Part shown: one piece after another, positions 5,486 through 55,231 of the stretch
Position numbering within the stretch: position 1 is the stretch's first letter
Layout of the letters: each line of letters begins with the position of its first letter
Assembly: GCA_041671645.1 (NCBI GenBank)
Contig: JBAZBD010000001.1
Location: forward strand, 85,561-149,560
Source of the DNA: Patescibacteria group bacterium
GTDB lineage: Bacteria; Patescibacteriota; UBA1384; XYA2-FULL-43-10; 1-14-0-10-43-13
Length of the DNA stretch: 64,000 nt
Direction: 5' to 3'
Notes under the pieces: model-generated
Databases searched by the model: none
Told to the model about the DNA's origin: nothing
Seen by the model: only the letters and a program-made list of their open reading frames with translations
Program-made: the position numbers and the translations under genes

Positions 5486-6445
5486 CTATTTTTTGCCATG
5501 AAACTTCTGGTGCACTTCTCGCAGGTGCTGGTCGGTCACATGAGTATAAATTTGGGTCGTGGTGATTGATGAGTGGCCAAGCATAGATTGGACACTTCGA
5601 ATATCGGCACCATTGATTAATAGATCGGTTGCAAAAGAATGACGCAGAGTATGAGGCGTGCATTTTTTGGTTATGCCGGCCAATCCAGCGTACTTCTTTA
5701 CAATTCGCTCTATCGAACGAACGGTCAATCTCTCTCCCTTGGGCGATAATAGTAAAGGGTCGAGTGTCGGAGTGTCGGAGTGTCGGAGTGTCGGAGCTTC
5801 TGGCCTCTCTGCCTCTCCGCCTCTGTGCCCTTTGTTTTTATCATACTGATCTATCCAATACACCGCTGAGTCAGAGAGGAAGACAACTCTGATTTTTTTA
5901 CCCTTGCCCAGGACCGATATTTCACCCCGATCGAAATTGATGTCAGAAGTATCGAGCGCCGCCAGCTCAGAGACGCGCATACCAGTCGAGAATAGAACTT
6001 CTAATATTGCTCTGTCACGAAGACCAGTCACTTTGGTCGTATCAGGCTTCTCTAATATTCCAGAGACTTCTTCGCCTCCCAGGAAGCTGATTTCGCGATC
6101 CCCAGTCTTGGCGACGGGCACTTTCTCTGGCGCTAATGTCTCGATCCCGCGCCAGGAAAGATAGCGCAAGAACGCCCGCAGGGCCAAAATGTGATAATTT
6201 TGAGTAATCAATTTTAGTTCTAATCCCTCTTGGTCGGTCAGACGATTGACATGCAGGCGATATTTGCGCACGATTTCCTGAGTAATATTTGCTGGAGTCA
6301 GCTCCGCCCCAGAATTATTTTCCGCAAGATAGTCCAAGAATCGGGAAATATATCGATCATAATTTTCAATTGTCAGAACAGCCCGACCCTTTTCGAGCTC
6401 ACAATGTTCTAGAAATTGTCTTTTGAGTTCTTGCAGCGAAGCCAT
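5486..6445 (-). CDS. xerD: Tyrosine recombinase XerC/XerD family
   Basis: HTLRHSFATDLLINGADIRSVQSMLGHSSITTTQIYTHV catalytic region with an N-terminal core-binding domain. The likely start is MASLQEL at 6445. It contains a tandem-repeat-encoded insert. Confidence 0.85.
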   Translation of the reverse strand: MASLQELKRQFLEHCELEKGRAVLTIENYDRYISRFLDYLAENNSGAELTPANITQEIVRKYRLHVNRLTDQEGLELKLITQNYHILALRAFLRYLSWRGIETLAPEKVPVAKTGDREISFLGGEEVSGILEKPDTTKVTGLRDRAILEVLFSTGMRVSELAALDTSDINFDRGEISVLGKGKKIRVVFLSDSAVYWIDQYDKNKGHRGGEAERPEAPTLRHSDTPTLDPLLLSPKGERLTVRSIERIVKKYAGLAGITKKCTPHTLRHSFATDLLINGADIRSVQSMLGHSSITTTQIYTHVTDQHLREVHQKFHGKK

Positions 6446-13824: not shown

Positions 13825-14811
13825 ATGGCATTTTCAACTCAACAACAAATTGAGATTGCGGGTATCAAGGACGGTATTATCATCATGAAAGATGGAACGT
13901 ACCGTGTCATTTTGGAGGTGACTGCTACCAACTTTGCGCTCAAAAGCGAGATGGAGCAAAACTCTCTAATCATGCAATATCAGAGCTTCCTAAATTCCCT
14001 ACATTTTACGATCGAGATCACCATACGCTCGAAAAGATTGGATTTAGCTCCTTATCTGACCAAGATGAAGGCACTGGGCGACAAACAGCCGAGTGAACTG
14101 ATCCGAGAGCTATCCGCTGATTACGTCGACTTTATCGGCAAGCTCGTCACCATCGCCAACATTATGAAGAAAAGCTTCTTTGTCACCATCGCTTACTCTC
14201 CTATTTCGGTCAAACAGGTCGGGCTTTTCAACATGCTATTCGGGCAAAAAACACAAAAATTTGATCATTTGAAAATCTCCGATGTTGATTTCAAGAACGC
14301 AACTGAGAAATTGCTTGAAAACGCCGGTATAGTCGCTTCTGGCCTAGGCTCGATGGGGCTCCACTGCTTTCAGCTTTCAACCGAACAGATCATTGAGCTC
14401 TTTTATCAAATTTACAATCCAGCTGAATCAACCAAGGAGCGATTGACCGACGCTGAGATGCTAGCTTCTCAGGTCGTCTCCACCAAGAAAGCTCCGGCGG
14501 ATGGCAAGGTGCCGGAGATCGATGGTATCACGCCGATGCTGATTGACAACACTCATATTGTGACGGCCCAGATGCAGCAGGAGGCGGAGCAGAGACGACA
14601 GGCCACTGAGATGGAAAATATGAATGCTCCTGCTGGAACGCAAGTACCACAGACCGCAGCCACAGAACAGGCTGGGGCCAGCAAAGCACCAGAGCTCAAT
14701 GAACTAGACGTTGCCACGGTAAACACCTCGGCATCAACCCCAACTACCAATTCTCCATTAGATAATTTGAGTAAAGACGATGACGGACCAGAACCCAAAC
14801 CCACAACCTAA
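13825..14811 (+). CDS. VirB4/TraE-family ATPase, N-terminal portion (first fragment of a split gene)
   Basis: IKDGIIIMKDGTYRVILEVTATNFALKSEMEQNSLIMQYQSFLNSLHFTIEI matches the N-terminal domain of Gram-positive VirB4 (PrgJ/TcpF type). It ends in a Q/A/T/P-rich low-complexity tail. Confidence 0.55.
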   Translation: MAFSTQQQIEIAGIKDGIIIMKDGTYRVILEVTATNFALKSEMEQNSLIMQYQSFLNSLHFTIEITIRSKRLDLAPYLTKMKALGDKQPSELIRELSADYVDFIGKLVTIANIMKKSFFVTIAYSPISVKQVGLFNMLFGQKTQKFDHLKISDVDFKNATEKLLENAGIVASGLGSMGLHCFQLSTEQIIELFYQIYNPAESTKERLTDAEMLASQVVSTKKAPADGKVPEIDGITPMLIDNTHIVTAQMQQEAEQRRQATEMENMNAPAGTQVPQTAATEQAGASKAPELNELDVATVNTSASTPTTNSPLDNLSKDDDGPEPKPTT

Positions 14812-16714
14812 TCCTGTCCAGCCGGACGCTCAAGCCCCAGCCCCAGTTCCACAGGCTCCTCCGGCCGATGCTAGAGCGATTGCAAACCAGAACCTGAAGT
14901 CCAGAGAGAAAAGCTCGATGACTCCAGACGAATTTTGGAACAAAAAGGCAGAAGCGTCCAAAATCAAGAGTGGGGCGACCTCAGTTCGAGATATTGTCGC
15001 ACCTGCCTCTTTCGCTGTTTCGTCCAATTTTATCCAAATCGACAATTATTTCGTCAAAACTCTCTTTGTCTTCACCTACCCCCGGTATATCGAGACGAAT
15101 TGGCTCTCGCCAATTATCAACTACGATATTTCGATGGATATCGCCATGTATATCCACCCGATGGAGACCAGAGACGTCATGACCGAGCTCAAGACTCAAG
15201 TTGGTAAGCTCGAGTCCACCCTTTCAATCGAGCGGGAAAAGGGCCAGCCCAGAGACCCAGAAGTCGAGACCGCGCTCGGTGACGTTGAGGCGCTTCGAGA
15301 TGTTCTCCAGCGTGGCGAGGTCAGATTATTTCAATTTGGGCTTTACTTCACTATCTACGCCGGCTCAGCCGAAGAACTTCGCACCGTCATGGATCAGCTC
15401 GAATCAACCTTGGGCGGACTCCTGATTTATACCAAAGAGACACTTTTCCAAATGGAGCAGGGCTTCACTGCCACTTTGCCTCTGATGCAGGACAAGATCA
15501 ACGTCCTTCGCAATTTGGACACCGCCTCTCTCTCCTCTACTTTCCCCTTCGTCTCGAGCGAATTGACCCAAGACGATGGAATTCTGTACGGAATCAATCG
15601 CCACAACAATTCCCTAATTATTTTCGATCGATTTTCTCTTGAAAACGCCAACTCTCTAGTCCTGGCCAAATCCGGCTCGGGTAAATCGTACTTGGTCAAA
15701 TTGGAGGCCTTGCGCTACTTGATGCTTGGCACCGACGTAATCGTGATCGACCCAGAAAACGAGTACAAAACTCTTTGCGATTCCGTCGGCGGTAGTTACT
15801 TGGATATTTCGTTAAACTCCGACAAACGAATTAATCCGTTCGACCTCCCAATCAACCCCTACGAAACAGGCGAAGACGTCCTCCGCTCTAATATCGCTTC
15901 CCTCCATGGCCTGATCAATATCATGGTCGGTGGCCTCACCCCAGAAGAAGACTCCACCGTAGACAAGGCTCTTTATGAGACTTACGCCATCAAGGATATT
16001 ACGACCGATCCAGAAAGCCAGACCAATCAGCCTCCTCTGCTTCAGGACTTCTTCAATATCCTCTCCAACATGCAGGGCACTGAATCGCTTCGGGCCAGAC
16101 TGGTCAAATACACCGAGGGCACCTACGCCAATCTTTACAACCAGCCGACCAATTTTGAGCTCAAAGAAGGTTTCGTTTGCTTCTCTGTCCGCGACTTGGA
16201 AGATCAGCTCCGCCCAATCGCTATCTATACTGTCCTTGATTATATCTGGACCAAAGTCAGAATGAACCGAAAACAGCGCATCATGATCGTGGATGAAGCC
16301 TGGTGGATGATGCAATATGAGGATTCTGCCAAGTTCCTTCACGGCCTGGCCAAGAGAGCAAGAAAATATAACCTTGGGCTTACAATCATCAGTCAGGACG
16401 TCGAGGATTTCTTGGGTAGCCGTTATGGCAAAGCCGTCTTGGCCAACTCCTCAATGCAAGTCCTGATGAAACAATCGACCGCTTCGATCAATTTGATCGC
16501 TGATGTTTTCAATTTGACTGAGGGCGAGAAATATTTGCTTCTCGAGTCTGATGTCGGAGAAGGTCTCTTCTTCGCGGGCTTGAATCACGTAGCTTTCAAA
16601 GCGATTGCTTCCTACACCGAAAATGAAATTATTACTGTCGAGCCAGAAGAGCTGGCAAAACAGGGGCCAGAAGATGCTGTAGCGGCAGCAGACCCTAACA
16701 CACCAACCCAATGA
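14780..16714 (+). CDS. virB4: VirB4/TraE-family T4SS ATPase, middle and C-terminal ATPase portion
   Basis: Walker A AKSGSGKSYLV and Walker B IMIVDEAWWMM. FVKTLFVFTYPRYIETNWLSPIINYDISMDI matches the VirB4 middle region. It starts with a P/Q-rich low-complexity stretch in a different frame from the upstream fragment. Confidence 0.85.
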   Translation: MTDQNPNPQPNPVQPDAQAPAPVPQAPPADARAIANQNLKSREKSSMTPDEFWNKKAEASKIKSGATSVRDIVAPASFAVSSNFIQIDNYFVKTLFVFTYPRYIETNWLSPIINYDISMDIAMYIHPMETRDVMTELKTQVGKLESTLSIEREKGQPRDPEVETALGDVEALRDVLQRGEVRLFQFGLYFTIYAGSAEELRTVMDQLESTLGGLLIYTKETLFQMEQGFTATLPLMQDKINVLRNLDTASLSSTFPFVSSELTQDDGILYGINRHNNSLIIFDRFSLENANSLVLAKSGSGKSYLVKLEALRYLMLGTDVIVIDPENEYKTLCDSVGGSYLDISLNSDKRINPFDLPINPYETGEDVLRSNIASLHGLINIMVGGLTPEEDSTVDKALYETYAIKDITTDPESQTNQPPLLQDFFNILSNMQGTESLRARLVKYTEGTYANLYNQPTNFELKEGFVCFSVRDLEDQLRPIAIYTVLDYIWTKVRMNRKQRIMIVDEAWWMMQYEDSAKFLHGLAKRARKYNLGLTIISQDVEDFLGSRYGKAVLANSSMQVLMKQSTASINLIADVFNLTEGEKYLLLESDVGEGLFFAGLNHVAFKAIASYTENEIITVEPEELAKQGPEDAVAAADPNTPTQ

Positions 16715-16715: not shown

Positions 16716-18161
16716 ATGCCTGACCTCGATGTCTCAAAAGTTGCAGGCGGGTTCAAGATCCAAAAATATCTGATTCCGATCGGCGGATTTTTTGTCGTCA
16801 TGCTTTTCTCTGTGATCGGTTTTTCTTTTTTTGGGATAATGAGGGACAATCGAATTCCCGAAGTGACACCCATGACCTCAATTTCTGGCGCATCTGTCAC
16901 CTGTCAGGACTGGGGCGCAGGCACAAAGGGTGCCGTCAATTTCCAGGAAGATATTACATATGCTGCCAACAATTCCAAGATCCAGCCAGCTCTGCTAGGC
17001 GCGATTTTTTCGGCTGAGCATGGAGGCTGGCCAGTTTCAAATTGGGCTACTGACGACTATACGACACCAAACCAAACAAGCGGTGCGATGGGCCCGTTTC
17101 AATTCATGCCTGGTACATGGGCTGAACAGTGCAAAAAATACAATAACGATCAGGTTAAAAAATTAGGCTTAGCCCCAATCGCAGATTGCGGTCCGGATAC
17201 CGCCAAGGATTTCAAATCTGCGTCCAAAGTCTCAGCCTATTATCTGAAATATCTGGCCGGCCGGATTACGAAGAATAGTAAAACTGCTGAAAAAGCTGAT
17301 ATTCAAGGTATAGCCGTTTCTTATAACGGTGGCCCAGGAACTTACGATGATTGGAAAGACTCTGGATTTGCGACCCTAAATAGCGAATCCAGCGGATACA
17401 AAACGAAGGTTTGGGATCGCTTTCAGGTTCTATACAAAGGGTGCTCCTCCAATGACGCTACCAATCTACCGACAACTATCTCCTCCTTTGACACTTCATT
17501 TATGAACGCAGAGCCGCTGAAGAGTTGGCTGAAGAATCGACCCAAGATTAACACACAGAGTCAGACCGCCACAGGCATTACTCTCCACTGGACGGGAAGC
17601 TGGGACAAGAATGTGACAGCAGAGCAGGCAGTCAGTAAGTTGATAACCGGTTGGTACAATCGTGATACGGAGACAGACGGCACGAAGTCTTCGGTATTTA
17701 ACCATCTGGTGATTGATCCGGCTGGCAAGGTTTGGCAGCTTATCCCGCTAGATGTAAGACAAGCTGGTTCGGGCAAGGGAACAGTAAATAATATTAGCGC
17801 CAATGACTTCACTATCGGCATTGAGATAGCAGGCACGGGGCCGGCAGATGTGGGGCCCGACACTGCCGCCTACAACGCAGCCCTTACTACTGTCGAAAAA
17901 CTGTTATCCGAGATTCCAACCATCAAGAACGACAGAGGCAATGACCTTAATTTCAAGGCTAAGTCTGGAATATTCGGTCACTTCCAAACCGCAACTGCGA
18001 CAAGCACGAGCACAGTTGGCTGTTCAAGCGCCAAGGATGACCCTGGGCTGGCCTTCATGAAGGAACTTTGGGATGACCTCAAGATTTGGCAGGGGCTCCG
18101 GACAAATGGCAACGGTTGTTATTTCGAAAATGGAAAAAAGAAATATTACCCACCAAGATAA
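16716..18161 (+). CDS. Bifunctional peptidoglycan hydrolase: SLT lytic transglycosylase plus N-acetylmuramoyl-L-alanine amidase (amidase_2/PGRP) domains; VirB1 functional analogue
   Basis: SLT motif AIFSAEHGGW...GAMGPFQFMPGTW. The C-terminal amidase_2-like region is NHLVIDPAGKVWQLIP...FTIGIEIAG. An N-terminal TM anchor is present. Confidence 0.7.
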   Translation: MPDLDVSKVAGGFKIQKYLIPIGGFFVVMLFSVIGFSFFGIMRDNRIPEVTPMTSISGASVTCQDWGAGTKGAVNFQEDITYAANNSKIQPALLGAIFSAEHGGWPVSNWATDDYTTPNQTSGAMGPFQFMPGTWAEQCKKYNNDQVKKLGLAPIADCGPDTAKDFKSASKVSAYYLKYLAGRITKNSKTAEKADIQGIAVSYNGGPGTYDDWKDSGFATLNSESSGYKTKVWDRFQVLYKGCSSNDATNLPTTISSFDTSFMNAEPLKSWLKNRPKINTQSQTATGITLHWTGSWDKNVTAEQAVSKLITGWYNRDTETDGTKSSVFNHLVIDPAGKVWQLIPLDVRQAGSGKGTVNNISANDFTIGIEIAGTGPADVGPDTAAYNAALTTVEKLLSEIPTIKNDRGNDLNFKAKSGIFGHFQTATATSTSTVGCSSAKDDPGLAFMKELWDDLKIWQGLRTNGNGCYFENGKKKYYPPR

Positions 18162-18201
18162 GTTCATATTTCGATGATTTTAGGGTAAAATTATAGTAGA
18201 G

Positions 18202-18248
18202 AATTCTTAGTTAGTAGTTATTAATTTTTATTCAATTTTTAATTTATA
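18202..18248. repeat. AT-rich repeat family member flanking four-helix-bundle gene (left)
   Basis: aattcttagttagtagttattaatttttattcaatttttaatttata is about 85% similar to the 36782 repeat. Confidence 0.6.
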
Positions 18249-18611
18249 ATGTCAAACCCCGACATCTTAAATCTGGAAGAAAGAACCGCAAAATTTGGTG
18301 AGGCGATAATACATTTATGCCAAGAATCAAAGGTAACAATTATTACCGAGCCAATTATACGACAGATAATACGTTCAGCCACGAGTATCGGTGCAAATTA
18401 CATGGAGGCGAATGGGGCCTGCTCAAAGAGTGATTTTAGAAATAAAATCTTTATCTGCAAGAAAGAGACAATGGAGACAAAACACTGGCTGAGAATGCTA
18501 TCGTCAGCTTTACCAGACAAATCCGATGAATTGCGAGAGTTATGGAAAGAAGCGCAGGAGTTAACTTTGATATTTTCTAAAATTGCCGGGTCCTTAAAAT
18601 CTAAAAATTAA
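18249..18611 (+). CDS. Four-helix-bundle protein (23S rRNA intervening-sequence protein family, TIGR02436-like)
   Basis: QIIRSATSIGANYMEANGACSKSDFRNKIFICKKETMETKHWLRML matches the family core (SIGANxAEG...SKxDF...KE..ET..WL). Confidence 0.7.
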   Translation: MSNPDILNLEERTAKFGEAIIHLCQESKVTIITEPIIRQIIRSATSIGANYMEANGACSKSDFRNKIFICKKETMETKHWLRMLSSALPDKSDELRELWKEAQELTLIFSKIAGSLKSKN

Positions 18612-18655
18612 TAATTGATTAAAAAATAGAAATTAATAAATAAGAATTAATTTGA
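18605..18655. repeat. AT-rich repeat family member flanking four-helix-bundle gene (right, inverted and degenerate)
   Basis: Its reverse complement aligns to the left flank (aattctta...ttattaattt...caatt.ttaattt). Confidence 0.5.
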
Positions 18656-19923
18656 ATCTAGAACTGAAAAAAATTGCCTTGTCCCTCTATGTCACGATAT
18701 TTATTGTTGTTTTGGCCATTTTGGGTGCGATCTGGTATTTTACTCGCTCTTTCGCCACGATCAAGGTCTTCCCTGTGGTGGCGACCGTGCGGATAGACGG
18801 CAAAATCTACAAAACTCAAAACGGCACAATCAAGACAATCCTTGAGCCTGGCGTTCATGAAGTTGTAGTTGAGGCGCCCGACAGTATCGGCACCAGCCAA
18901 AAGGTAGATCTGGGCCGAGGATCGAACAAAGAAGTCAGCGTTGCACTGGCCGAGATGCCCAAACCGATCAAAATCGCCTCTGACGCCAAGATGACTTCTC
19001 GCGGTAATGACTTCAATAGCTTCTACTATCTTGGTGAGAATAGCCGAACACTTTTCCGAGTCAAACTCGGAATCGATGACAAGACAGGAGAGATCAAGAC
19101 GCTAGAACATCGCTCTATCACCGATCCGAAACTATCGAGCAACAAGGAGATTGCCTGGTCACCCTCGGGGCAGCTGGCTCTCTTTCGCAAGAACAACAAT
19201 GACATCAACCTCTTTGACTTTGCCAAATATGACTTTGTGAATCAGACCGAGAGGCTCTGGGGCAAGAATATCGGCAGCATGGCCTGGGCACCAGATGATT
19301 CCGAAATCGCTTACTACTACAATCCTGGCACAGGAGAAGAGTCGCTCATCCTTTCAAACCTCGGCAACACCGACATGACTCGGGTAGCCGATTTTGGAGC
19401 TTATAATATTAACAACCCGATATTACACTGGTCGCCAGATTCCGAGTGGCTCTTGGTCATTCCTCGCAACAGCGATTACGCTACCAACAAGATTTATCTC
19501 TTCAATGCCTACGCTCGATCGATCAAGGAGTTCACGGCCGAGGGAGATCAATTGGACGCCTCTTTCTCGCCAGACTCGAACAAAGTCCTTTTCTCGACCT
19601 ACCAGAAGGATCCCAGCAGCTCCATCCCGGGCACCCTCTCGATCATGGACAAAGACGGGCAGAATCTCAAGAATTTGAATTTGAGAGCAGACTTGTCCAA
19701 AATTGTTTGGGCTAATGACTCCAAACATATCGTTGTCTCTACTTACAATCCTGATCTCAAACACGATGAAATCTTCCGATTCAACACCGATACGGGCGAG
19801 AAAGCTGGTTTTATTCTCCGCAACCTTGGGGATATCACGATCAACAACCTTGTTTTGTCCGATGATGAGAAGATGGTAATATATGAGACAAAGGACGGGG
19901 TATACGCCGTCAAAGTGAATTAG
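18652..19923 (+). CDS. Membrane-anchored PEGA-like plus TolB/PD40 beta-propeller repeat protein
   Basis: N-terminal TM, PEGA-like VRIDGKIYKTQNGTIKTILEPGVHEVVV, and repeated PD40 motifs (AWSPSGQLALF, AWAPDDSEIAY, HWSPDSEWLLV, SFSPDSNKVLF). TTG start. Confidence 0.6.
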   Translation: MNLELKKIALSLYVTIFIVVLAILGAIWYFTRSFATIKVFPVVATVRIDGKIYKTQNGTIKTILEPGVHEVVVEAPDSIGTSQKVDLGRGSNKEVSVALAEMPKPIKIASDAKMTSRGNDFNSFYYLGENSRTLFRVKLGIDDKTGEIKTLEHRSITDPKLSSNKEIAWSPSGQLALFRKNNNDINLFDFAKYDFVNQTERLWGKNIGSMAWAPDDSEIAYYYNPGTGEESLILSNLGNTDMTRVADFGAYNINNPILHWSPDSEWLLVIPRNSDYATNKIYLFNAYARSIKEFTAEGDQLDASFSPDSNKVLFSTYQKDPSSSIPGTLSIMDKDGQNLKNLNLRADLSKIVWANDSKHIVVSTYNPDLKHDEIFRFNTDTGEKAGFILRNLGDITINNLVLSDDEKMVIYETKDGVYAVKVN

Positions 19924-21790: not shown

Positions 21791-24700
21791 TTGAGGGATG
21801 TGAAGAAATTTTTGCAAAAATTTGTGTTCACGCTGGTTGCGCTGATTTTGGTGTTGAACCCATATATCGAGCTCATCCCGACAGATTACTTCTCCAGCAA
21901 GGCCAAAGCGGCGATCAACGATATCCCTGATCCAGAGATCGCGTCAACCGATGAGAGCGATCATGATTATGAGGAGGAAGTAGATAGCGATTACACCCCA
22001 GAATACTCTCCGAATTTCATCCCCGACCCAGTCAAAGATGCCTTCTCCCTCGTGGTGACTGATACCACTGAGACCTTTACTGATCTTACCAGCACGAGCA
22101 GTCTGCTTGAAGATATTGGTGATGCCAAAATCATCCTGACCCAGAGTGATTTTGACGCGATCAAGGCCCTTCGTTGCATGAAGAATCTACTCCCGCCATT
22201 CGCCGAGAACATGTCAAAACTCTATGAGTTTACGATTCCCGAGGGTATCATTAATTCTAACGAACAATACAAAAACTTCCCAGCCAAAGAGGAAATTGAC
22301 GATGCAGTCTCTAGTGAGGGATCTCAAGCGACGCCAAGATTCGGCACACCCGAAGAATACCTCTCCTATCTCAAATACGGAGACTCTGGCGACCCGCTCC
22401 TCACCACAAACCAGAACAAGGAAAAATTTGTTAACTATGTTGATTCAGCCAAAGCATATTACGGCGACGATCGCTTAAGGGCAGACTGGCTTGCGCAAAT
22501 CGACAACCTTGCAGAGAACAAAACTCTCGATACCGATATAAATACTCTAGCTTGCGTCACTCGGATTACTGACGCAGAACAGCTGATGGCTCTGATTCGA
22601 GAAAGCAAAACTGATGAGACCAAGCGACAGTACTTGCTCGACAGAATCAATGAGAGTCTAGACGGACTCAAGATTGACATCCGCGCAGTCAAGGCCCTGA
22701 TTTATTTGGTTACGCCTAAGAACAAGGGAGGCGCTGGACACTGGAGAATCCGCGTCAAGAAATTCCTCCAAACTGGCCGCAAATCAGGTGAGTCTGATGC
22801 GTTGCTGACTGGAGCCGCCAAAACAGTGAACTGTGATCCGGCCAAATCCGCCGCTGAATGCGGCATGGCTCAGTACCAACCGGGCGAGGCGACGATAGAA
22901 GAGAAAGATGGTAGCGCCTACACTGCCTATCTAGAGTCTATGAACGACGGTGAGCAAAATGATTCAATGCACCAGCAGGGTCAGGCTATTGATATTTCTG
23001 AGATTGACGACATAAGATGCACGATACGGAAAGAGGTTAAGCAGTGGGGAAATGTTAAGGGCCAGAACACTCCTCAACCAACAAGACCAATTAAGTTGGC
23101 CTGGCAGACTACAGAAGGGTTCAACAAATCAGAGGGTGCCAATGACTTTGATATGATGTCTCTTATCAAATCGATGGCGACCTCCGAGGTGGTCGACTTC
23201 CTGGGCTCGATCAACGAGACTGATATGTCTGACTATGAGGGCGACCTGACCAGAGCCAGTTTTGGAGATCTAGTCAACGTAGTGGGCAAGTCCCTAATGA
23301 CTGAAATTCTCGCTTCGCCTGATCATAATTTGAAGGGCTATAGCACCGACAGCACTCTTAGAAACCTGGGTGGTATCTATATCGCTGACTATCTCGGGAT
23401 TAATCGAAAATTATTTACAGACAAACATATCAACACTCCGGGAGATCTCTTCTATGAAATCGGCCGCGGCGCGATCGAGACTCGGATGAAATTGCCTCTC
23501 AACTCACTCGACACGACCAATCCTGCCGTGCCCCTCTTCTCGACCTTGGCCCAGACAGGAACTAGGAAATTGGAGTATGAATTGGGGCTAGCCAACGGAG
23601 ATCTGGCGCGCCTAGACCCAAACTCGGTTGCCAGCATCTATATTGGCGCCCGTGTGATCGAAGGAACGCTTAATTTCAAGAAATTCGTTTGGCCAAGCCA
23701 GGACAAGCCATTTGCTGAGTTTGCCAGCACAGCAGAGGGTCTGAATTGGTTTGATCTGCTTCGGCTCAGCCCAGACACAATCGACATGATGCTTCACCTG
23801 AAGTCTGGTGTGACTGAAGCCTTGGTCAAGGGCAAGACCTTGACTCCGGCTCAGTATGACAAAATGATGAAGTTGCCCGAGGGCACGACGACAGAGTCAG
23901 TCAAGATGAACTCGGACCGATACGCTAGTATCGTTGGGCAAGTTAGATTGGATGAGACAACTTTTGGCTTTCAATACTTCGCCGCCAACGATGCCGCCTT
24001 CTCCTTGCCAACTGGGCTCTGGGCTGAGGTAATCAAATTTAGCCCAGATACTTTGCAACAGAGCCTCGCTGAAGTCGGAATTTATACGCTCTCTCGACTA
24101 TTCGGCGAAGATGATGCTTCTCCTTTGCCAAAGCTAGAAGTGGGAGAGCAGGTTGTCAGTATCCAGACCCATGAGTACGGCAAGGATGTAACTTTCCAGG
24201 CAAATGATGGTAACTTTGGTCGCTGGGTATTCCGAAGTTGGCTTCGAGACAACCTAACCAAATCAACCGAAGAGGCTTGTCAGGCGCCGGCCCGTCCGAT
24301 TGAGGTTGATGTTTCCTTTGATCAAGCTGGCGCTCAGCAGCCAAATCCAAACAGTCTGCTAGATGTTCAAGCAACTTTTGGAACCAATGTATTCAAACCG
24401 GTCAGTCTAGCTCTAGACTACCAAGTCACCTATAATCCAGCCGCCAATGGCATACCACAGCCTTCGAAAACGCTGACCAAAGACGTCTCTGAGATTAGAC
24501 CAATTTCCGAAGAAAAGGCAACGAAATATGGCTTTGTAAATCGAGACTTACAAAGAATCTTTGGCTGTGCATCAGCCAATGGGCGTGATGTCTACCAGCG
24601 GATAGGCTCTGAGCTCCTCTACACCGCCCTGATCAACCAGGCGCTGAGCGAGACTGACCGCGCCAAGATTGACATTATGGACACCGATCCTACAATTCAT

Positions 24701-27700
24701 GTTGCCAACGAAGAGATCAACTTCTACATCCAACGCATCTTCTATATTAAGAAATTGCTTGGACAGATCGACACCCAATACGGCTCAATCGTATCTGAGG
24801 GCAAAGACGACATTAAATCTTTTGTAGATCTTTCGAAACTATCTTATGACCAGCTCAAACAGGTATATGGAGACCTGACCAATCTCCAACTGTTCTCCAT
24901 CAGCAAAATAGCCGCTACCGCCTCACAGACTATGACCGATATCGACACGCTAAAACAGGTGGCCTCCGATTGGAAAGAGTACATGCGGACACGAAGGGCA
25001 GACTTGGTCGGAGATATAGCTGCCGTCAATCAGATTGTTTATCTCGTCAACGAGCTTTGGACCACTATTGCCGAGCTCGATCGTGGCAAGGCTATTAATG
25101 GTGTTGATCGTATTAAATTTCAGCAGATTGATTCTACTCCGCTACAGGAAGTCGTAAACCAGGACAGAAGACAGCAAGCACAAGAGAGATCAGACTCGGC
25201 CAAGAAAAAGGGCCTCTCTGCTTGGCAGGTTGCACAGATGATGTTCGACTGGATTGCCGGTACGATCACTTCCTCCGAGCTCTTTTATCGCCTGGGCGCC
25301 AACTCGATCGAAGCTAACATCGGCCTTCCGCCCAATAGCCTAGTCTACCTAGTCCGCAATTATGACCAAAATGGCATATCTGGCCTCGACGCCTTTTATC
25401 AATCGGTTGGCCAGGCCAGGATTGAGGAAAATTTTGGCATGCCCGCCTTCTATTTCCAGGGCAACTTTGATGCCCAGGCCAAGCCCAACTTCCAATCTGA
25501 CCTGAAGGCAGTCTACAACATGATTACGACGGATTCTGTGCTTAAGCACGATTATCCCGATCTGGCCGCACTATCCGAAGCAGACTTCCTGAAGTATATG
25601 GATAGCCTGCTCACGGCGCCGATGCTCGATTATGCCGCCGATCCCTGGATACAGCTTATCAGGACCCCCGGTAGTCCATATTCGATCAGTAGTGAGCCCA
25701 AGACCCCAGGTGATGATCTCAATGCCTACAAGGCCTTCTACAAGAAAATCGCCGATAGTCAAAAAGCTTATACCAAGAGCACGGCTCATTGGCAGGCAAT
25801 TGTTGACAATGTCGACAAACGTTGGAAAGCCAAGCGCGCCAGTGATGTCAAGGGATTGGGCAGTAGCAAGTACAGCGAATCAACAGTCCAAGACATCGTA
25901 GCAAATATCAAACAGCGCTGCTTCACTGGTGTAAACAAAGCTCAAGCGGATGGTACAGTGAAATGTCTCAATATGACTCGGTCCCCCGAGGATGATCTCC
26001 TTTTCCGTATGGGTCTCCCGCGTGGAAACTTTAACGCTATGACCGCAGAGAATTCAGTCAACAACACGTCCCTCTGGACTCGACTAGCAGGCACTACTCA
26101 GTCAATCGAGCAGGGATTCACAATCGATCAAAACGCGATCAAAGCCCTCTTTACCGGAGAAGATACTCGCTATATTAATCTTTCCCGAAAAGAGAAGCAG
26201 GTGGTCGAGGGTTCTGCTCTCAAAATCAATACCAACGTACTAAGTTTCTACGCTCAGATGCTTAATGGTGAGGTTCTGCCCAACGACACAGATCAGTATA
26301 ATTTGGACACTTGGACTCAGTACTACGTCAGCAACCCGTATGCACCGAAACAGCAAGCCAGTGAGACTTGCCCAGTTCTTTATTTGCCAAAAGGTGACGC
26401 AAGCGGCACCTTTATGGTCAATGAGACTACCCTTGAAAACAATTCATACTGCTATTATGACGCCAAGGGAAGACACTGCTTCAAGAGTTGGGATGAAGCC
26501 CAGCGCTATGCCATTGCCCACGAAGCCGACTCGATAAGACATCTGAAAGTCGTGATAGACGGCAAAGAGCAGGAAATTAGCAACAATATTCTGGGATATC
26601 TTGCCAATCAACTTGTTCTGGCCAACAATGCCGCTTTACCTGACCAAGCGACCACAGATGCCGCCGCAAATGCAAATGTCACCATCCATGGAACTATCGA
26701 ATTAAATCTGAGTGATGTCTACGCAGGACTGGTCAGATTTGTGAATGACAACTCGATGGTCGATATCTTTGGGGATAAGAACAAGAGTATAGCCATGATT
26801 TCGGCCATCGCTGGCTCGACGACTGTGCCGGCTAGTATACTAGAAAAGCTTTTTACTCGTGAACCGAGCGTAAATTCCGTCGCCACTTTCAAGAAGAAGG
26901 TTGGTGTCAAGGAAGCACAAAAAGTTGTCACTTACCAAATTTTTGGAGCTTTGCAACTTGGCCTCGCCGTTGGGCCGGACTACTTCGACGCAGGCGACCT
27001 CTATGATGTCTTGAACGGCGACTACACTGCGCTGACCAACATCGCGACCAATTATATTGATCTGAAGGCTGAGCTGAAGCCTGGCACAACACGTCTTCTC
27101 TACGAAGCTCGCAATCCAGAATCAATTACTTGCGCCCTCGCCCAAGCTGGTGGCTCAATGCTCGGTCGGATCTTTGGCCTCAACAATATTCCGCTCAATG
27201 GGATCCAAAACGTCTCATCATTTAAAGAAGCGGTCGGTCAAGCCAAGGTCGAGGAGACCCTCTCCCTGCCTCGAGGTACCTTCAGGGGCAACAATCTGTA
27301 TGAACTGCTCGACAATGTCGGACCGATCAACTTCATGATCGCCTTTAAGATACCGGTTGACCCATCAGTTGCGAATGGGATTTCTGACGATATCGACAAG
27401 ATACTCAACTCCAACACTAGCTACTCTCAGGGAGCCAATTTGGCCTATCGCTTGACTCGGGTAAGAGATGTTCTCTCGACTCGCAATATTCTTCAAAGTG
27501 ATATTGGCACAGCCATCGCCAATATCAACAGCGCTCTCAAAAATTATTTCATCAATGATCTGCTCAAACAATTTGAAAATGATCCGACCAAGATCCAAGT
27601 TGCCCTGTCGGCCCGTAATCAAAACAATAGAGATTGGTATTATGCGGTCCAGGATTTCTATCAGCAGACCAGTTCACTGGACAAAACTTTTGCGGTCAGC

Positions 27701-30700
27701 AACGGTAGCACTTATCAGCTTCTAACCAACTCGATCAAGCCAAAAACCTATATCAATCGAATTGGCGAGAATCTCATGGTCACTGCCGCCATTTCCAACG
27801 CCGCCACTCTGCTTGGGATTTCCGACGCGAAAGTTCAGGCAGCAGCCGGCGTCCTGGGTGCAATCAAGAACAATTTTGTCTGCGAGAAAAGCAAGATCAT
27901 CACCAGAGATAATTATCCATCAAACGGCGTTTCTGACGGACATTTTCTCTACGATGTGCAAGTAAACAATATCAAAAATGACTACTGGGAACAGTATCTC
28001 AGAACCGGCAAACATACTTATGACGATGTTGGCTTTCCCGTCTTGGTTTATGATGAGGTTGGCGCTGCAATCGGCTACTGTAGCGATGACACTTATGGCC
28101 AATTCGGCGAACTGTATACCAATCTTAATACCCTCTTCGGCTTCAATCTTGATGACAGGATGAATTTGCCGGAAGGCACGATCAGCAAAGTTCTATCTGA
28201 CCCCGACCACATCGTCGATAATATATTGAATATCGGACTCAGCAAACTTGACCAACAACTTGGACTTGACTATACCGTGGACGGTTCTTTCTCATTCAAT
28301 GGCTTCTGGAAAGCGACCTTTTACAAGGACGGCCAGAAGAAGGACGCAGAGAGAGAAAAAATCGACAGAAAGTGCTACAGCCAAAGTTATCCAGGGGGGA
28401 CAGACGTCGCCATCAAAACTCAGTATGACGCTGCCAACAACGATATTAAGCGATTGCTCGGAGAGTGGCCGGCCCGAGGAGCTTCACGGATCGAGGGCGA
28501 AAATTACCAGCAGTACTCGCAGAGAGTAACTTCTCAAGCCACTTTGGACGCCACTCACACTACTGAGATGCGGGACGCTTGGGTTAGCGATTGGGAAAAA
28601 TACAATCAGCAGGCTAACACTGCTAGCGGCAATATTACTATCCAAAACAATGCCTTTAATCAATGTAAGCTCGACAACAGGAAGCCAGTAAGTAACGCGG
28701 CGTTACGAGCAGATATTCTTGACTACGCCACCGGCCAACTTGTCACTTTGACTGGCAAACTACTGCGAGACGTTGTCGTTACGATTCCTGATTGCCAAAA
28801 CAATCGCGCCGCTTATCTTGACGGGGCAGGCAGCTATGACCCCGTTCTCTCCAACCAGCTTGATTATTTCGGCCAGCCTATTGGCTATGAAGAGTGCAAA
28901 GCCAAGGTCGGTGTTGTTGTTCCGAGAGAAGATTTGAAAGCACTTATCCAGGGCGACCTTCGCTATCTTTCCCCGATTGCCATGACAATCGCTTCAAACA
29001 TCGCCATGATACCGGTAGACATGTGGGGCACGGATAACTGCAATCCAGACGCCGATGGCCGATGTGAGAGTGCCGTTCCACCTCAATTCAAGCTCAGTTA
29101 CAACGACTACAAATATGCCATTTTTGGCAACGCTCAGTCCGACCAAGCGGCTCGGGACGTCGCCGCTTATAGTCACTTCAACTTAATTGAAAAAAACCCT
29201 GACGGCGTACGCATCAACTCAGGGCCGGAGTATCCTGTCTCTACTGATCCCTTCGACACGGGTCTTGGCATACTTTCAGATACCAGGGTGGCAAAAGTAG
29301 CGAATCAACCTGGCAGAGAGATTATCAACAACAAGACTGATATCTACACACAATACGGCTATACCCCAAGTAGTGCCGAGGCTGTCGATGCAATCAGCCA
29401 ACGAGCCGATTTGCAAAACAGCGTGGCCGACTTTGAAAACGCTTGCGGCATCAAGTATGGGCTTATCAGCAACAGCGCGGCGACTTGCCACAATGGGTCA
29501 CCAGAGTTTGCGGCCTATATTTCAGATAGAACTCAATTAACCGCACTAAGAGATAGGGAGACTGCGATTCTAGGCGAATCAAAGAACCTCTACCGAAACA
29601 ACTTGATGTACAAGGCGATAGACATAGCCGCCTGGAAACTTGATGGCAACGCCTATCCTGGATTTGCTCGCGCAATCGCAATCGGCACTCCCAAAATGAA
29701 GGCAGAGGCCCTTGTCACTTATCTCAAGATTGGTGCTCAGAGAGGCCATCTCTTCGGCATGGATTTCAGAGCAGTCAAAGATATCGAGCAGTGGGCCGGG
29801 GCCGCTCAATTTCTCTACGAGGCTGGGCAAAATATTCTTCGCGATACGGATACGTTTGACCCCCTAAGCACTCTTGCCAAGAATCCTAGCGCTCGATATT
29901 TCATCCAAGATTTTATCGTCTCTCGCTCAAAGGCCTGGTTTGGCTTCGAGATCCAACCAGACATGGCTGAGGGTATTATAGTCGGCATTGGTACTATGGG
30001 CTCAGCCGACCATCCTTGGGGCAATTGGGGGATCAAGGATGTCGGCATCGACAAAGTTTTTGAGGACCCGAACAACACGGGCGTCACTATTAATGTTGGA
30101 GGAGACAAGACAGTCCAGATGAAGACTCTGGGCGGAGCAACACAAGAGTATCTGGTCGACCGTCTTTTCTCCTGGGCCGACACCAAACTTGGTCTCGAGG
30201 CAGGCACTTCCTTCAAGCTCGCCAAGGGCATATATGACGCTTTCACTGCTTACGGCAAAGTATCTGCCGCCATCAAGGCCGCCAAGCTGGCTGGTTGGGT
30301 TGTGCCAAACTTGCCTCATACTGCCGCTGGCCTGGAAGCGATAGCCGACACTCTTTTCGATAAAGCAGACGCGTTAGCTTTGGATATAACAGACGCAGAA
30401 CTTTCGGCAAGCCTAACAGGGGCTGACGCTAACCAAATCGTTTATGAGAATACCGGATTTGATGGCGTAGACGCAGGAGAAAAAGCTGCCGAGGATGCCA
30501 AAGCTGCCTCTAAGACTATAAATACCGAGGGAACCAAATTCCAAGCTGCCAAAGACCTTGTTGCGGCCATAATCATTGAAATCTTAATTGGTAAAGCGCT
30601 TGGCAAAATCGTGGCCGGTTGGGAACAGGATCTTGGTATGATCCCTGGCACTCTGATGCCACTGGTTTCTGGTATTGTCACTTTCGTGTTTATCTTCGTC

Positions 30701-31282
30701 TGGAATACGGTGATGGCCACGATTGGAGCGGAGGTATTAATGCTATCCCAGGTGCCAGGACTTCAGTGGCTTGCTATAGCAATAGCCGTCATCGGTTTCA
30801 TTGGTGGGATGCTCTTTAGCACTAAATATTTCTACTGGTGTACTGCCGATGGATACTACCCAAGAGTTGGGTCTTTTGATTACAACAAGGACGTGGGTGG
30901 ATTTGGAGAAATAGGCGGACGAATCGATCGCGGCGCAGCCTTCTTGGGACCGCTCATGGCAACTTATGGCGTGAAAGTGGCACAATACAAAGCTCGCCAA
31001 TTGGTTGGCGACATGCTGGCTCTGCAAAACTCTCCTCGATTCAAAGATTCATATGGCGACGATATCGTACCAATCCAAATCATGACTGGTCGCAAAGTTG
31101 ATGTTGATTTCTGGAAAGAGAGCATTGATACCAATATGTGCAAGAAGATGCTTGATGAAGATTACATCGCCTGTGACGGCATGTGCGGCAAAGCGACTAG
31201 CGATGGCGGCTGTGTCAGTACTTCCCGTATGGGCGTCTGGGCCAATCCACAAACGATAGGCTGGACGCATATTGGATTTTAG
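21791..31282 (+). CDS. Giant (3163 aa) membrane-anchored surface protein
   Basis: Single uninterrupted ORF with an N-terminal hydrophobic signal/anchor and a C-terminal cluster of TM helices (GIVTFVFIFVWNTVMATIG, LQWLAIAIAVIGFIGGMLF). No recognisable catalytic motif; it is in an operon after the T4SS genes. Confidence 0.7.
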   Translation: MRDVKKFLQKFVFTLVALILVLNPYIELIPTDYFSSKAKAAINDIPDPEIASTDESDHDYEEEVDSDYTPEYSPNFIPDPVKDAFSLVVTDTTETFTDLTSTSSLLEDIGDAKIILTQSDFDAIKALRCMKNLLPPFAENMSKLYEFTIPEGIINSNEQYKNFPAKEEIDDAVSSEGSQATPRFGTPEEYLSYLKYGDSGDPLLTTNQNKEKFVNYVDSAKAYYGDDRLRADWLAQIDNLAENKTLDTDINTLACVTRITDAEQLMALIRESKTDETKRQYLLDRINESLDGLKIDIRAVKALIYLVTPKNKGGAGHWRIRVKKFLQTGRKSGESDALLTGAAKTVNCDPAKSAAECGMAQYQPGEATIEEKDGSAYTAYLESMNDGEQNDSMHQQGQAIDISEIDDIRCTIRKEVKQWGNVKGQNTPQPTRPIKLAWQTTEGFNKSEGANDFDMMSLIKSMATSEVVDFLGSINETDMSDYEGDLTRASFGDLVNVVGKSLMTEILASPDHNLKGYSTDSTLRNLGGIYIADYLGINRKLFTDKHINTPGDLFYEIGRGAIETRMKLPLNSLDTTNPAVPLFSTLAQTGTRKLEYELGLANGDLARLDPNSVASIYIGARVIEGTLNFKKFVWPSQDKPFAEFASTAEGLNWFDLLRLSPDTIDMMLHLKSGVTEALVKGKTLTPAQYDKMMKLPEGTTTESVKMNSDRYASIVGQVRLDETTFGFQYFAANDAAFSLPTGLWAEVIKFSPDTLQQSLAEVGIYTLSRLFGEDDASPLPKLEVGEQVVSIQTHEYGKDVTFQANDGNFGRWVFRSWLRDNLTKSTEEACQAPARPIEVDVSFDQAGAQQPNPNSLLDVQATFGTNVFKPVSLALDYQVTYNPAANGIPQPSKTLTKDVSEIRPISEEKATKYGFVNRDLQRIFGCASANGRDVYQRIGSELLYTALINQALSETDRAKIDIMDTDPTIHVANEEINFYIQRIFYIKKLLGQIDTQYGSIVSEGKDDIKSFVDLSKLSYDQLKQVYGDLTNLQLFSISKIAATASQTMTDIDTLKQVASDWKEYMRTRRADLVGDIAAVNQIVYLVNELWTTIAELDRGKAINGVDRIKFQQIDSTPLQEVVNQDRRQQAQERSDSAKKKGLSAWQVAQMMFDWIAGTITSSELFYRLGANSIEANIGLPPNSLVYLVRNYDQNGISGLDAFYQSVGQARIEENFGMPAFYFQGNFDAQAKPNFQSDLKAVYNMITTDSVLKHDYPDLAALSEADFLKYMDSLLTAPMLDYAADPWIQLIRTPGSPYSISSEPKTPGDDLNAYKAFYKKIADSQKAYTKSTAHWQAIVDNVDKRWKAKRASDVKGLGSSKYSESTVQDIVANIKQRCFTGVNKAQADGTVKCLNMTRSPEDDLLFRMGLPRGNFNAMTAENSVNNTSLWTRLAGTTQSIEQGFTIDQNAIKALFTGEDTRYINLSRKEKQVVEGSALKINTNVLSFYAQMLNGEVLPNDTDQYNLDTWTQYYVSNPYAPKQQASETCPVLYLPKGDASGTFMVNETTLENNSYCYYDAKGRHCFKSWDEAQRYAIAHEADSIRHLKVVIDGKEQEISNNILGYLANQLVLANNAALPDQATTDAAANANVTIHGTIELNLSDVYAGLVRFVNDNSMVDIFGDKNKSIAMISAIAGSTTVPASILEKLFTREPSVNSVATFKKKVGVKEAQKVVTYQIFGALQLGLAVGPDYFDAGDLYDVLNGDYTALTNIATNYIDLKAELKPGTTRLLYEARNPESITCALAQAGGSMLGRIFGLNNIPLNGIQNVSSFKEAVGQAKVEETLSLPRGTFRGNNLYELLDNVGPINFMIAFKIPVDPSVANGISDDIDKILNSNTSYSQGANLAYRLTRVRDVLSTRNILQSDIGTAIANINSALKNYFINDLLKQFENDPTKIQVALSARNQNNRDWYYAVQDFYQQTSSLDKTFAVSNGSTYQLLTNSIKPKTYINRIGENLMVTAAISNAATLLGISDAKVQAAAGVLGAIKNNFVCEKSKIITRDNYPSNGVSDGHFLYDVQVNNIKNDYWEQYLRTGKHTYDDVGFPVLVYDEVGAAIGYCSDDTYGQFGELYTNLNTLFGFNLDDRMNLPEGTISKVLSDPDHIVDNILNIGLSKLDQQLGLDYTVDGSFSFNGFWKATFYKDGQKKDAEREKIDRKCYSQSYPGGTDVAIKTQYDAANNDIKRLLGEWPARGASRIEGENYQQYSQRVTSQATLDATHTTEMRDAWVSDWEKYNQQANTASGNITIQNNAFNQCKLDNRKPVSNAALRADILDYATGQLVTLTGKLLRDVVVTIPDCQNNRAAYLDGAGSYDPVLSNQLDYFGQPIGYEECKAKVGVVVPREDLKALIQGDLRYLSPIAMTIASNIAMIPVDMWGTDNCNPDADGRCESAVPPQFKLSYNDYKYAIFGNAQSDQAARDVAAYSHFNLIEKNPDGVRINSGPEYPVSTDPFDTGLGILSDTRVAKVANQPGREIINNKTDIYTQYGYTPSSAEAVDAISQRADLQNSVADFENACGIKYGLISNSAATCHNGSPEFAAYISDRTQLTALRDRETAILGESKNLYRNNLMYKAIDIAAWKLDGNAYPGFARAIAIGTPKMKAEALVTYLKIGAQRGHLFGMDFRAVKDIEQWAGAAQFLYEAGQNILRDTDTFDPLSTLAKNPSARYFIQDFIVSRSKAWFGFEIQPDMAEGIIVGIGTMGSADHPWGNWGIKDVGIDKVFEDPNNTGVTINVGGDKTVQMKTLGGATQEYLVDRLFSWADTKLGLEAGTSFKLAKGIYDAFTAYGKVSAAIKAAKLAGWVVPNLPHTAAGLEAIADTLFDKADALALDITDAELSASLTGADANQIVYENTGFDGVDAGEKAAEDAKAASKTINTEGTKFQAAKDLVAAIIIEILIGKALGKIVAGWEQDLGMIPGTLMPLVSGIVTFVFIFVWNTVMATIGAEVLMLSQVPGLQWLAIAIAVIGFIGGMLFSTKYFYWCTADGYYPRVGSFDYNKDVGGFGEIGGRIDRGAAFLGPLMATYGVKVAQYKARQLVGDMLALQNSPRFKDSYGDDIVPIQIMTGRKVDVDFWKESIDTNMCKKMLDEDYIACDGMCGKATSDGGCVSTSRMGVWANPQTIGWTHIGF

Positions 31283-33861: not shown

Positions 33862-34273
33862 TTGTTCTCCTATTCTTACTTATCCCCATTTTGGGGTAAA
33901 CCTGTGTCTAACTTAGTTATTTATATTGTTAAATTATCTTCTTCCAGACTATCTTATTTCGCTGAATCTTTTTGGTTGTGGAAAAGTGCAATTTATCACC
34001 AATTCGTTGTGAACAATCCCTCAAGTTATCAGCACTTTCTTTTGACTTTCAACTTTCAACTTTCAACTTTTGAGGTTCTCCCCATCTTTTCCCTAAGTTA
34101 TACCCCCGCTCTTTCCACAGCTTAGATAGGTAATAAGCTTCTCTAGCAATGGCTTATTTGACTTATCCCCTCTGTCCACACCCCTTATTACTACTACTAT
34201 TTATAAAGCATATTGTATATCTAACCCAAAAGGTTTGGATCCCAGTTCAAGCCTGGGATGACACCAAGGGGTG
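33862..34273. promoter_or_regulatory. Candidate oriC segment (dnaA-dnaN intergenic) with multiple DnaA-box-like 9-mers and embedded CAACTTT tandem repeat
   Basis: DnaA-box-like 9-mers are TGTGGAAAA (33977), TTATCACCA (33993), TGTGAACAA (34008), TTATCAGCA (34026), CTTTCCACA (34111) and TGTCCACA (34174). The region is AT-rich. Confidence 0.6.
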
Positions 34274-55230: not shown

Positions 55231-55231
55231 T

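Follow-up and report, generated by a model that had tools for sequence, protein, structure and literature searches.

A gene of the 23S rRNA intervening-sequence protein family enclosed by inverted heptamer repeats between protein-coding genes of a Patescibacteria group bacterium

Some bacterial 23S rRNA genes, including those of Leptospira, Coxiella burnetii, Brucella and Xanthomonas, carry an intervening sequence (IVS) whose loop contains an open reading frame (ORF) for a protein of the S23p family, also known as four-helix-bundle (4HB) proteins. The IVS of Coxiella is 428 nt long, is closed by a 28-bp terminal stem, and has three to four copies of GACAGAT in tandem immediately ahead of the ATG of the S23p gene together with a poor Shine-Dalgarno sequence; RNase III cuts it mid-stem in vitro, and the ends have been mapped by rapid amplification of cDNA ends (PMC4990558). 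The function of the IVS-encoded protein and the manner in which IVSs spread have been questions since the early 1990s (PMC4990558). Here we describe a gene of the same family that lies outside rRNA, in a stretch of 64,000 nt from a Patescibacteria group bacterium (assembly GCA_041671645.1, contig JBAZBD010000001.1, positions 85,561 to 149,560 of the forward strand; the whole stretch is referred to as the window), where it fills the space between two inverted arrays of heptamer repeats within a type IV secretion system (T4SS) locus. It is one instance of a general architecture that has apparently gone undescribed so far, as a literature search, in which subscription journals were poorly covered, returned no description of non-rRNA 4HB genes with inverted or heptameric flanks.

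The 4HB gene (18249-18611, plus strand; 120 aa) is on the strand of both of its neighbours. Its left arm (18202-18248, plus strand; 47 nt, 11% G+C) consists of about 6.5 imperfect heptamers (…AGTTAGT, AGTTATT, AATTTTT, ATTCAAT, TTTTAAT, TTATA) and ends at the base next to the ATG, while the right arm (18602-18648, plus strand; 47 nt, 6% G+C) is built of the reverse-complement heptamers, begins 7 nt before the stop codon, overlaps the final codons together with the stop, and leaves 3 nt to the TTG at 18652 with which the next gene starts. The window as a whole has a G+C content of 46%. Because the left arm abuts the ATG and the right arm starts within the last codons, the ORF exactly fills the loop of a hairpin with some 5-7 imperfect heptamers in each inverted arm, and arm, ORF and arm form a discrete unit, the cassette, of 447 nt (18202-18648) with 353 nt between the arms. 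A preliminary description of the locus had drawn its end at 18655, which is 7 nt beyond the right arm and inside the start of the next gene. The same description had called the flanks AT-rich imperfect inverted repeats, and under formal alignment their similarity is indeed strong: the arms are 81% complementary over 47 nt without gaps, and their ungapped inverted-repeat score of 24.5 compares with 10.0 ± 1.6 (maximum 17.5) in shuffled flanks, none of 2000 shuffles reaching 24.5. As RNA, the two arms are predicted to form a duplex of -22.9 kcal/mol, as compared with -12.8 ± 3.0 in dinucleotide shuffles, 4 of 1000 of which reach the energy of the arms, and in the predicted fold of 18190-18670, a check that the preliminary description had proposed, the terminal stem is present in both the minimum-free-energy (MFE) and the centroid structure. 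The lag-7 self-match is 0.68 in the left arm (0.42 ± 0.07 in shuffles) and 0.65 in the right arm. No obvious Shine-Dalgarno sequence precedes the ATG. A scan of 17900-18900 for promoters and terminators gave nothing above chance and no terminator-like site; a promoter-like TTCATA-17-TAAAAT just left of the cassette (18163-18191) is kept in the two closest relatives, and the number of promoter-like matches of this kind is not above chance.

The protein itself is a member of the 23S rRNA IVS family (S23p, 23S_rRNA_IVP, TIGR02436), as had been proposed: it matches PF05635 (23S_rRNA_IVP) above the curated cut-off of Pfam (E-value 7.9e-13, 49 bits, cut-off 33.8) and the NCBIfam model TIGR02436 ('four helix bundle protein') with an E-value of 3.3e-19 (69.1 bits, cut-off 24), and a sequence search of the PDB returned 2rld (E-value 1.4e-10). 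The AlphaFold2 monomer model has a predicted local distance difference test score of 92 and helices at residues 4-26, 33-55, 60-87 and 89-118. With this model Foldseek returned 2rld (E-value 1e-5, template modelling (TM) score 0.77-0.85), 2gsc (Xcc0516, TM score of about 0.8) and the Avd structure 4dwl, and the predicted fold is an up-down four-helix bundle of one domain, similar to BT_0352 and Xcc0516. Both of the nearest PDB folds, 2gsc and 2rld, are pentameric S23-family structures with five chains each. The family motif (G)xxRxxxSxxxNxxE (Lin 2006; Zhang & Ye 2013, in the passage of PMC3936711 that quotes it) corresponds to Q39-R42-S46-N50-E53 in the window protein, where Q39 replaces the G (invariant in alignment A2). 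The protein has 7684 homologues, and a scan of viral contigs found no relatives. Across seven cassettes, pN of 0.13-0.28 against a saturated pS of 0.7-0.9 indicates that the protein is maintained by purifying selection. The fold is also that of Avd of the diversity-generating retroelements (TM score 0.71-0.79 between the predicted model and 4dwl), a ring of five subunits that binds nucleic acid and keeps structured RNA and the reverse transcriptase together (PDB 8ub7 and related entries). Unlike the genes of Avd proteins, the window gene has SLT/amidase and beta-propeller genes as neighbours, with no reverse transcriptase or template/variable repeats adjacent and no repeats in the region other than the arms, and the best Pfam family of its product is PF05635, not bAvd.

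The likeness to rRNA-borne IVSs goes beyond the protein, and the IVS-like arrangement suggested in the preliminary description is recognisable in the layout. The cassette (447 nt) is similar in size to the Coxiella IVS (428 nt); in both, terminal inverted repeats make up the closing stem, the ORF fills the loop, tandem heptamers stand right before the ATG, the Shine-Dalgarno sequence is weak or absent, and the gene is in the sense orientation to the host transcript (PMC4990558). A sporadic phylogenetic distribution and the decay of the ORF to bare stem-loops are shared as well (PMC4990558). The differences lie in the host, which here is an intergenic spacer or 5′ leader of protein genes and not helix 9, 25 or 45 of 23S rRNA (Rfam finds four tRNAs and no rRNA in the window), in the state of the ORF, which is under purifying selection here and decaying in Coxiella (PMC4990558), and in the evidence for excision by RNase III, which has been demonstrated for rRNA IVSs and which we infer for the window cassette.

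Related genes share the layout. Species-representative genomes were scanned with the VirB4 protein, which gave 80 related loci (cited below by number with the prefix L), and two profile iterations gave about 40 4HB ORFs; for each gene an inverted-repeat score was computed between its 100-nt flanks. The median score was 19.5 for 24 4HB genes of these loci and 7.0 (75th percentile 8) for 1021 other ORF-genes. Inverted flanks are present at most of the about 45 further 4HB genes of related Patescibacteria. Four of the ten best-scoring 'other' genes were themselves divergent members of PF05635, and the remaining outliers were IS200-like Y1 transposases with 38-nt inverted repeats of their own, genes flanked on both sides by a GC-rich palindrome, and PrgI genes between two neighbouring hairpins. 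Arm sequences vary from cassette to cassette (AATTTCT, AAATTTT, TAAAGTC, AACACGT, GATATTA and others) to the point that those of different cassettes cannot be aligned with one another, and the complementarity within each cassette is preserved. Over 43 cassettes the lag-7 match is 0.46 in the 56 nt before the ATG and 0.52 in the 56 nt after the stop, as compared with 0.33 and 0.34 in shuffles (z 16); at lag 14 z is 7-10, and 7 is the best lag in 29 of the 43 upstream and 35 of the 43 downstream arms. The median ungapped arm of 34 nt corresponds to about 4.9 heptamer units. In this Patescibacteria set the 4HB gene shares its strand with the gene downstream of it in 39 of 39 cases and with the gene upstream in 37 of 40. 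The median spacers, 52 and 58 nt, are barely longer than the arms, and therefore a promoter of the cassette's own, if there is any, should lie inside the arms; read-through transcription is the simplest reading of this layout.

These comparisons also settle whether the arms might be a chance likeness of two AT-rich, low-complexity spacers, or the ordinary terminator or insulator hairpins of any gene. With arms of 6-11% G+C, chance complementarity is high, and the ordinary fold energy of the whole region (z -1.2) would agree with such a view. Nevertheless, the shuffled flanks never reached the observed inverted-repeat score and the dinucleotide shuffles rarely the duplex energy, the pattern is lacking in the 1021 control genes, including 265 with A+T-rich flanks (median score 8), there is no terminator-like site in 17900-18900, the arms pair with each other across 353 nt and neither with itself, and G+C-richer cassettes keep the same layout (units AACACGT, CGTAAAT and CACTGGT, for example). 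We regard the chance explanation as scarcely credible and, by the shuffle and control-gene comparisons, refuted.

The layout is found on plasmids of other phyla as well. A tblastn search against plasmids gave 4HB genes in 24 records, 16 of which were read, and in 13 of these 16 the flanks are inverted repeats with z of at least 6 (Cyanobacteriota, Bacteroidota, Chloroflexota and Spirochaetota). Perfect tandem heptamers are among them: AATTCAA (5 copies), TAATTCG (4.7-5.5), CAATTCG (4-5), CCCCAAT (6) with CGTAAAT (4), and CACTGGT (13). The arm/ORF/arm layout with a 7-nt periodicity is thus present around most family members examined, in five phyla, and both this generality and the heptamer periodicity are additions to the preliminary description, whose observation is confirmed and whose interpretation is supported, each element that could be tested having held. 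The plasmid-borne genes interrupt operons, between drmD and pglX, csx2 and cas1, RND adaptor and permease, or helicase and methylase.

Some of these cassettes lie inside defence operons (L101, L105, L106, L129 and L132, on plasmids of Planktothrix, Chlorohelix, Pseudanabaena and Dolichospermum), the contexts being DISARM drmD and BREX pglX or MmeI, a helicase and an N6-methylase, and csx2 and cas1. They probably account for the reports of 23S_rRNA_IVP as a 'CRISPR-associated' gene in the passages concerned of PMC3936711 and PMC10910872, and 23S_rRNA_IVP genes near cas or other defence loci may be operon passengers, not functional partners. Some cassettes are trailed by an extra half-hairpin or array: in L101 and L129 the right arm is followed by a second left-arm-type run (CCCCAAT / CCCAAAT) before the next gene, and in L109 a second array, of GAGATTT units, precedes the next gene.

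The T4SS setting of the window cassette, another claim of the preliminary description, holds because of its neighbours: a VirB4/TraG-type ATPase gene in the upstream region (14780-16714), a gene for an SLT+amidase protein directly to the left (16716-18161), and a beta-propeller protein gene directly to the right (18652-19923, with the TTG start). The best relatives of the window are metagenome-assembled genomes (MAGs) labelled Berkelbacteria or 'Saccharibacteria', and among them the cassette is not universal at the amidase|beta-propeller site. In L001, the closest relative, where VirB4 is 93% identical, the cassette is absent and the site holds only AATCTAAAATAAGAAT, a 16-nt remnant that resembles the outermost bases of both arms, those of the right arm (AAATAAGAAT) being kept. 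In L081 (VirB4 91% identical) the same site (5830-5985) is occupied by a 150-nt ORF-less hairpin with a fold z of -3.8 and unrelated arm sequences, and the more distant L002, L003, L043 and L082 have spacers of 30-45 nt with no trace of the element. In other lineages, cassettes stand before or after VirB4 within the conserved operon, with up to three per locus. The closest proteins (80% and 78% identity) are encoded in another organism between recX and the gene for pyruvate phosphate dikinase (PPDK), and the next closest (76%, L093) between L25 and an SLT-like gene. In one recX|PPDK cassette, L089, the arms are recognisably homologous to those of the window, the left arm included, and the synonymous sites of the ORF are saturated; with homologous arms and unrelated neighbours, the whole module therefore changed its genomic address as a unit. 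A column-by-column comparison of the window and L089 arms for covariation was uninformative, there being one G/C position, which differs on one side only. We read the alleles as those of a cassette acquired in the course of evolution, whose decay leaves bare hairpins. Elsewhere in L081, upstream of VirB4 (935-1370), a 4HB ORF is split in two frames (tblastn matches at 994-1134 and 1146-1319) and an inverted repeat of 36 nt and 89% is kept.

The same alleles could be seen differently, as those of a resident, vertically inherited small regulator whose hairpin serves its own translational or stability control and whose patchiness reflects repeated loss by hairpin-mediated replication slippage. 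The strong purifying selection on the protein would suit such a regulator, as would a stem that sequesters the start and stop codons, the lack of evidence for recent movement, and the L001 remnant, which looks like the base of a deleted hairpin; moreover, the relevant passages of PMC4679880 propose that heptamers which end 1 nt ahead of a start codon are sites of post-transcriptional regulators. We nevertheless consider vertical residence improbable, as the outgroups have short spacers in which the element is untraceable at the amidase|beta-propeller site, its position in the conserved T4SS operon varies (before VirB4, after VirB4 or after the amidase gene), the genes of the most similar proteins have unrelated surroundings (recX|PPDK, L25|SLT and Wzy|hypothetical), and in other phyla the gene splits obligate operons (RND adaptor|permease, drmD|pglX and csx2|cas1). 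The 4HB gene tree is also, in outline, incongruent with the host tree.

Within the window, which contains one ORF-carrying cassette, there are further heptamer hairpins that have no ORF. The one in the yidD-yidC spacer (36770-36855, plus strand) joins a left-arm-type to a right-arm-type sequence through a loop of about 16 nt (RNA fold -20.4 kcal/mol, z -3.8; lag-7 self-match 0.65) and has the appearance of a cassette from which the gene is missing. Another copy, in the divergent dnaA-rpmH spacer (35812-35880, minus strand), is inverted with respect to the first and 96% identical to it over 56 nt, and has a weak fold (-11 kcal/mol, z -1.1; lag-7 self-match 0.55). The cassette's left arm (18215-18250) matches 36782-36817 with 92% identity over 36 nt and 35867-35833 with 91% over 35 nt; on the right, 18613-18642 matches 36822-36851 with 90% over 30 nt and 18606-18647 matches 35838-35879 with 86% over 42 nt. 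The flanks had been assigned to the same family as the repeat flanking rpmH, and these identities (86-92% over 30-42 nt) agree with that assignment. More diverged is an AT-rich heptamer hairpin at 55150-55235 (minus strand), which matches the other copies over short stretches (fold of the minus strand -20.6 kcal/mol, z -2.6; lag-7 self-match 0.61). A heptad scan added an ORF-less hairpin at 45961-46085 (no strand assigned) with AATTATC units and their reverse complement around a loop of about 45 nt; its inverted repeat (45979-46007 and 46053-46081) is 72% complementary, and its lag-7 self-match is 0.49 as compared with 0.30 in shuffles.

Such hairpins bring to mind an element that moves as DNA, in which the heptamer arms would be the terminal inverted repeats (TIRs) of a non-autonomous transposon, akin to MITEs (miniature inverted-repeat transposable elements) or to the hairpin-forming palindromes known as REPINs, moved in trans (by a Y1/HUH transposase, for example), with the 4HB gene as cargo or accessory and the bare hairpins as miniature derivatives. 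MITEs and REPINs, too, are intergenic palindromes with terminal inverted repeats, several similar copies per genome and larger, gene-carrying relatives. The unit of insertion or deletion coincides with the arms, copies within one genome that lack the ORF are 90-96% identical, the duplex energies of the sense and antisense strands are equal, as symmetry at the DNA level predicts, Y1 transposase genes do occur in related loci, and the notion of IVSs as remnants of transposition is an old one (Burgin 1990, as cited in the relevant part of PMC4990558). However, the gene of the window cassette is not a transposase gene, there is no transposase in or beside any cassette, and no mobility mechanism was identified; nor is there a clear target-site duplication, as the AGAATT at both cassette ends (AGAATT/AATT) belongs to the palindrome and comparison with the empty site of L001 resolves no duplication. 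ORF-carrying copies within a genome are diverged, at 40-67% protein identity (L063, L012), identical proteins are never found at two sites, and the near-identical ORF-carrying copies that would mark a MITE are not seen in the 64 kb, where an identity of 96% is confined to the ORF-less hairpins at 35.8 and 36.8 kb. The internal tandem repetition of the cassette arms and their strong co-orientation with host transcription are further differences from MITEs and REPINs, and the 39 of 39 agreement in strand with the downstream gene is unexpected for a symmetric TIR element unless there is selection on transcription. Finally, the Y1 elements that were found carry their own, non-heptamer inverted repeats. 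A DNA-level, MITE-like element is in our view unlikely.

The Y1 transposase genes mentioned above (IS200-like, PF01797) lie at 7168-7806 of L043 and 1823-2461 of L002, inside an inverted repeat of 38-39 nt that contains G+C (GGGGACGGTTCTCTTCTGATCTCGG…), is conserved across two different MAGs and adjoins the T4SS locus. Two other candidates were set aside: an integron cassette, as there is no integrase nearby and the flanks pair together, neither being an attC hairpin, and a type III toxin-antitoxin system, which has direct repeats of about 36 nt where the units here are 7 nt long and inverted.

A stem that acts in the transcript as a substrate of RNase III is favoured because of the co-orientation, the sequestration of both codons and the experimental precedent, and we think it probable that the element is an IVS-type cassette outside rRNA that is transcribed by read-through and processed in this way. 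Transcription would run in from the host operon or begin at the promoter-like site next to the left arm, and the arms would pair in the transcript to give a stem of about 45 bp, punctuated by mismatches, which encloses the start and stop codons. This stem would be cut by RNase III, as shown experimentally for rRNA-borne members of Coxiella, Leptospira and Salmonella, and the cut would set the 4HB mRNA free and part the flanking cistrons without damage to them. Over time the ORF would be lost and bare heptamer hairpins would stay behind, as perhaps at 35.8, 36.8, 46.0 and 55.2 kb of the window. More speculatively, the protein, as a pentameric ring, might bind the heptamer arms, at about five units per arm, and compete with the stem, thereby controlling its own translation or processing; the idea that a ring binds some five heptamers is speculative and draws on the analogy of other ring-shaped proteins, which recognise tandem repeats in RNA, and of RNA binding by Avd.

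Several observations weigh against an RNase III-processed cassette of this kind. Cleavage and co-transcription are both steps that we infer from sequence, and a signature search within the 64-kb window found no rnc. The MFE of the region as a whole (18190-18670) is ordinary (z -1.2), which is as expected because an A-U stem closes a 350-nt coding loop, and the A-U stem is weak, with a mismatch roughly every 7 bp. Over 38 cassettes the arm-duplex energies of the sense and antisense strands do not differ (Wilcoxon p 0.92), a comparison of low power in A+T-rich arms; an RNA-level stem is therefore not favoured over a DNA-level inverted repeat so far by stability. In one group of loci (L093, 3900-4480; also L094-L100) the flanking copies of CAATCAAAATTCAAAATTAGAAATTAAA are direct and not inverted, as though one of the arms had been flipped or exchanged. 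In four cyanobacterial cases, L102 and L130 (Anabaena and Nostoc plasmids) as well as L131 and L134, which depart from the co-orientation of the Patescibacteria set, the 4HB gene is antisense to both neighbours, and these antisense cyanobacterial copies, for instance between cas2 and cas1, still carry inverted heptamer-type arms. Lastly, two close homologues, found on 18-24 contigs, have one genomic context each and no sequence variation, so there is no sign of current transposition; heptamer copy number was likewise invariant in 10 loci of each of these two homologues. The mobile module of the preliminary description accordingly stands on an evolutionary time scale, whereas recent movement finds no support.

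The heptamers themselves connect the cassette with a further body of observations. Abundant intergenic heptamers, often in convergent pairs or just before start codons, are described for Xanthomonas, Nostoc, Beggiatoaceae and Bacteroidetes, with units that include the short tandemly repeated repetitive (STRR) sequences of cyanobacteria, GGGAATC in Xanthomonas, GGGGA(C/T)T in Nostoc and TAACTGA in Beggiatoaceae; Xanthomonas has 70-75 convergent heptamer pairs, and the repeats vary in length and have been assigned no function or binding factor in the relevant passages of PMC4692102 and PMC4679880, according to which the surplus of heptamers in the genomes of bacteria has lacked an explanation since 2007 or earlier. 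These heptameric simple sequence repeats resemble the cassette arms in being tandem 7-nt units in intergenic sequence, often upstream of start codons and often in inverted pairs, and differ in that the inverted pairs of the cassettes enclose a 4HB gene; the 4HB family is unmentioned in the relevant passages of the two studies, which draw no link to it. In 1.31 Mb of Patescibacteria loci, strict tandem arrays with a unit of 7 number 41, as compared with 0-7 for units of 4-6 and 8-12. Only seven of the 41 abut a 4HB gene; about 10 more are matched by an inverted partner, and the remainder stand alone. All eight of the loci of at least 20 kb with arrays more than 300 nt from any 4HB gene contain a 4HB gene, as do 5 of 25 array-less loci (Fisher p 9e-5, not phylogenetically corrected).

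One tentative extension, which we would not yet bet on, is that S23p proteins and tandem-heptamer repeats are one widespread system, in which the ring binds about five heptamers as RNA or single-stranded DNA, rRNA IVSs and operon cassettes are the same selfish or regulatory element, and much of the heptamer excess (the cyanobacterial STRR sequences, the Xanthomonas GGGAATC pairs and the Beggiatoaceae TAACTGA units) would be the footprint or the binding sites of the protein. Regardless of whether this is so, an arm/ORF/arm module in ordinary operons of the Patescibacteria and four other phyla is not a curiosity of rRNA, and the architecture ties an orphan protein family to unexplained heptamer repeats. 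It also offers experimental handles: the heptamer arms are a defined candidate RNA or DNA ligand for a small, crystallised protein, filled, ORF-less and empty alleles of one site occur naturally, and the heptamer-repeat load of a genome is predicted to track its PF05635 copy number.

Other features of the window deserve brief mention. Tandem-heptamer arrays of a different, GC-containing composition (GACTTTC, GGAATCT and CAACTTT) are present at 777-819, 3073-3119 and 34035-34074; that at 3073-3119 has an inverted partner at 3216-3239, 99 nt away, and the other two appear solitary. The neighbourhood of a replication origin spans 34274-37747, with dnaA (34274-35662, minus strand) followed by rpmH (35929-36069), rnpA (36181-36543), yidD (36521-36754) and yidC (36863-37747). 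Beside dnaA there is a perfect DnaA box, TTATCCACA, at 35707-35715, and the AT-rich heptamer hairpin at 35812-35880 occupies the expected place of an unwinding element. A single ORF of 3163 aa (21791-31282) follows the T4SS-like genes immediately downstream and is preceded by one of 617 aa whose N-terminal half is long, of low complexity, and acidic/basic.

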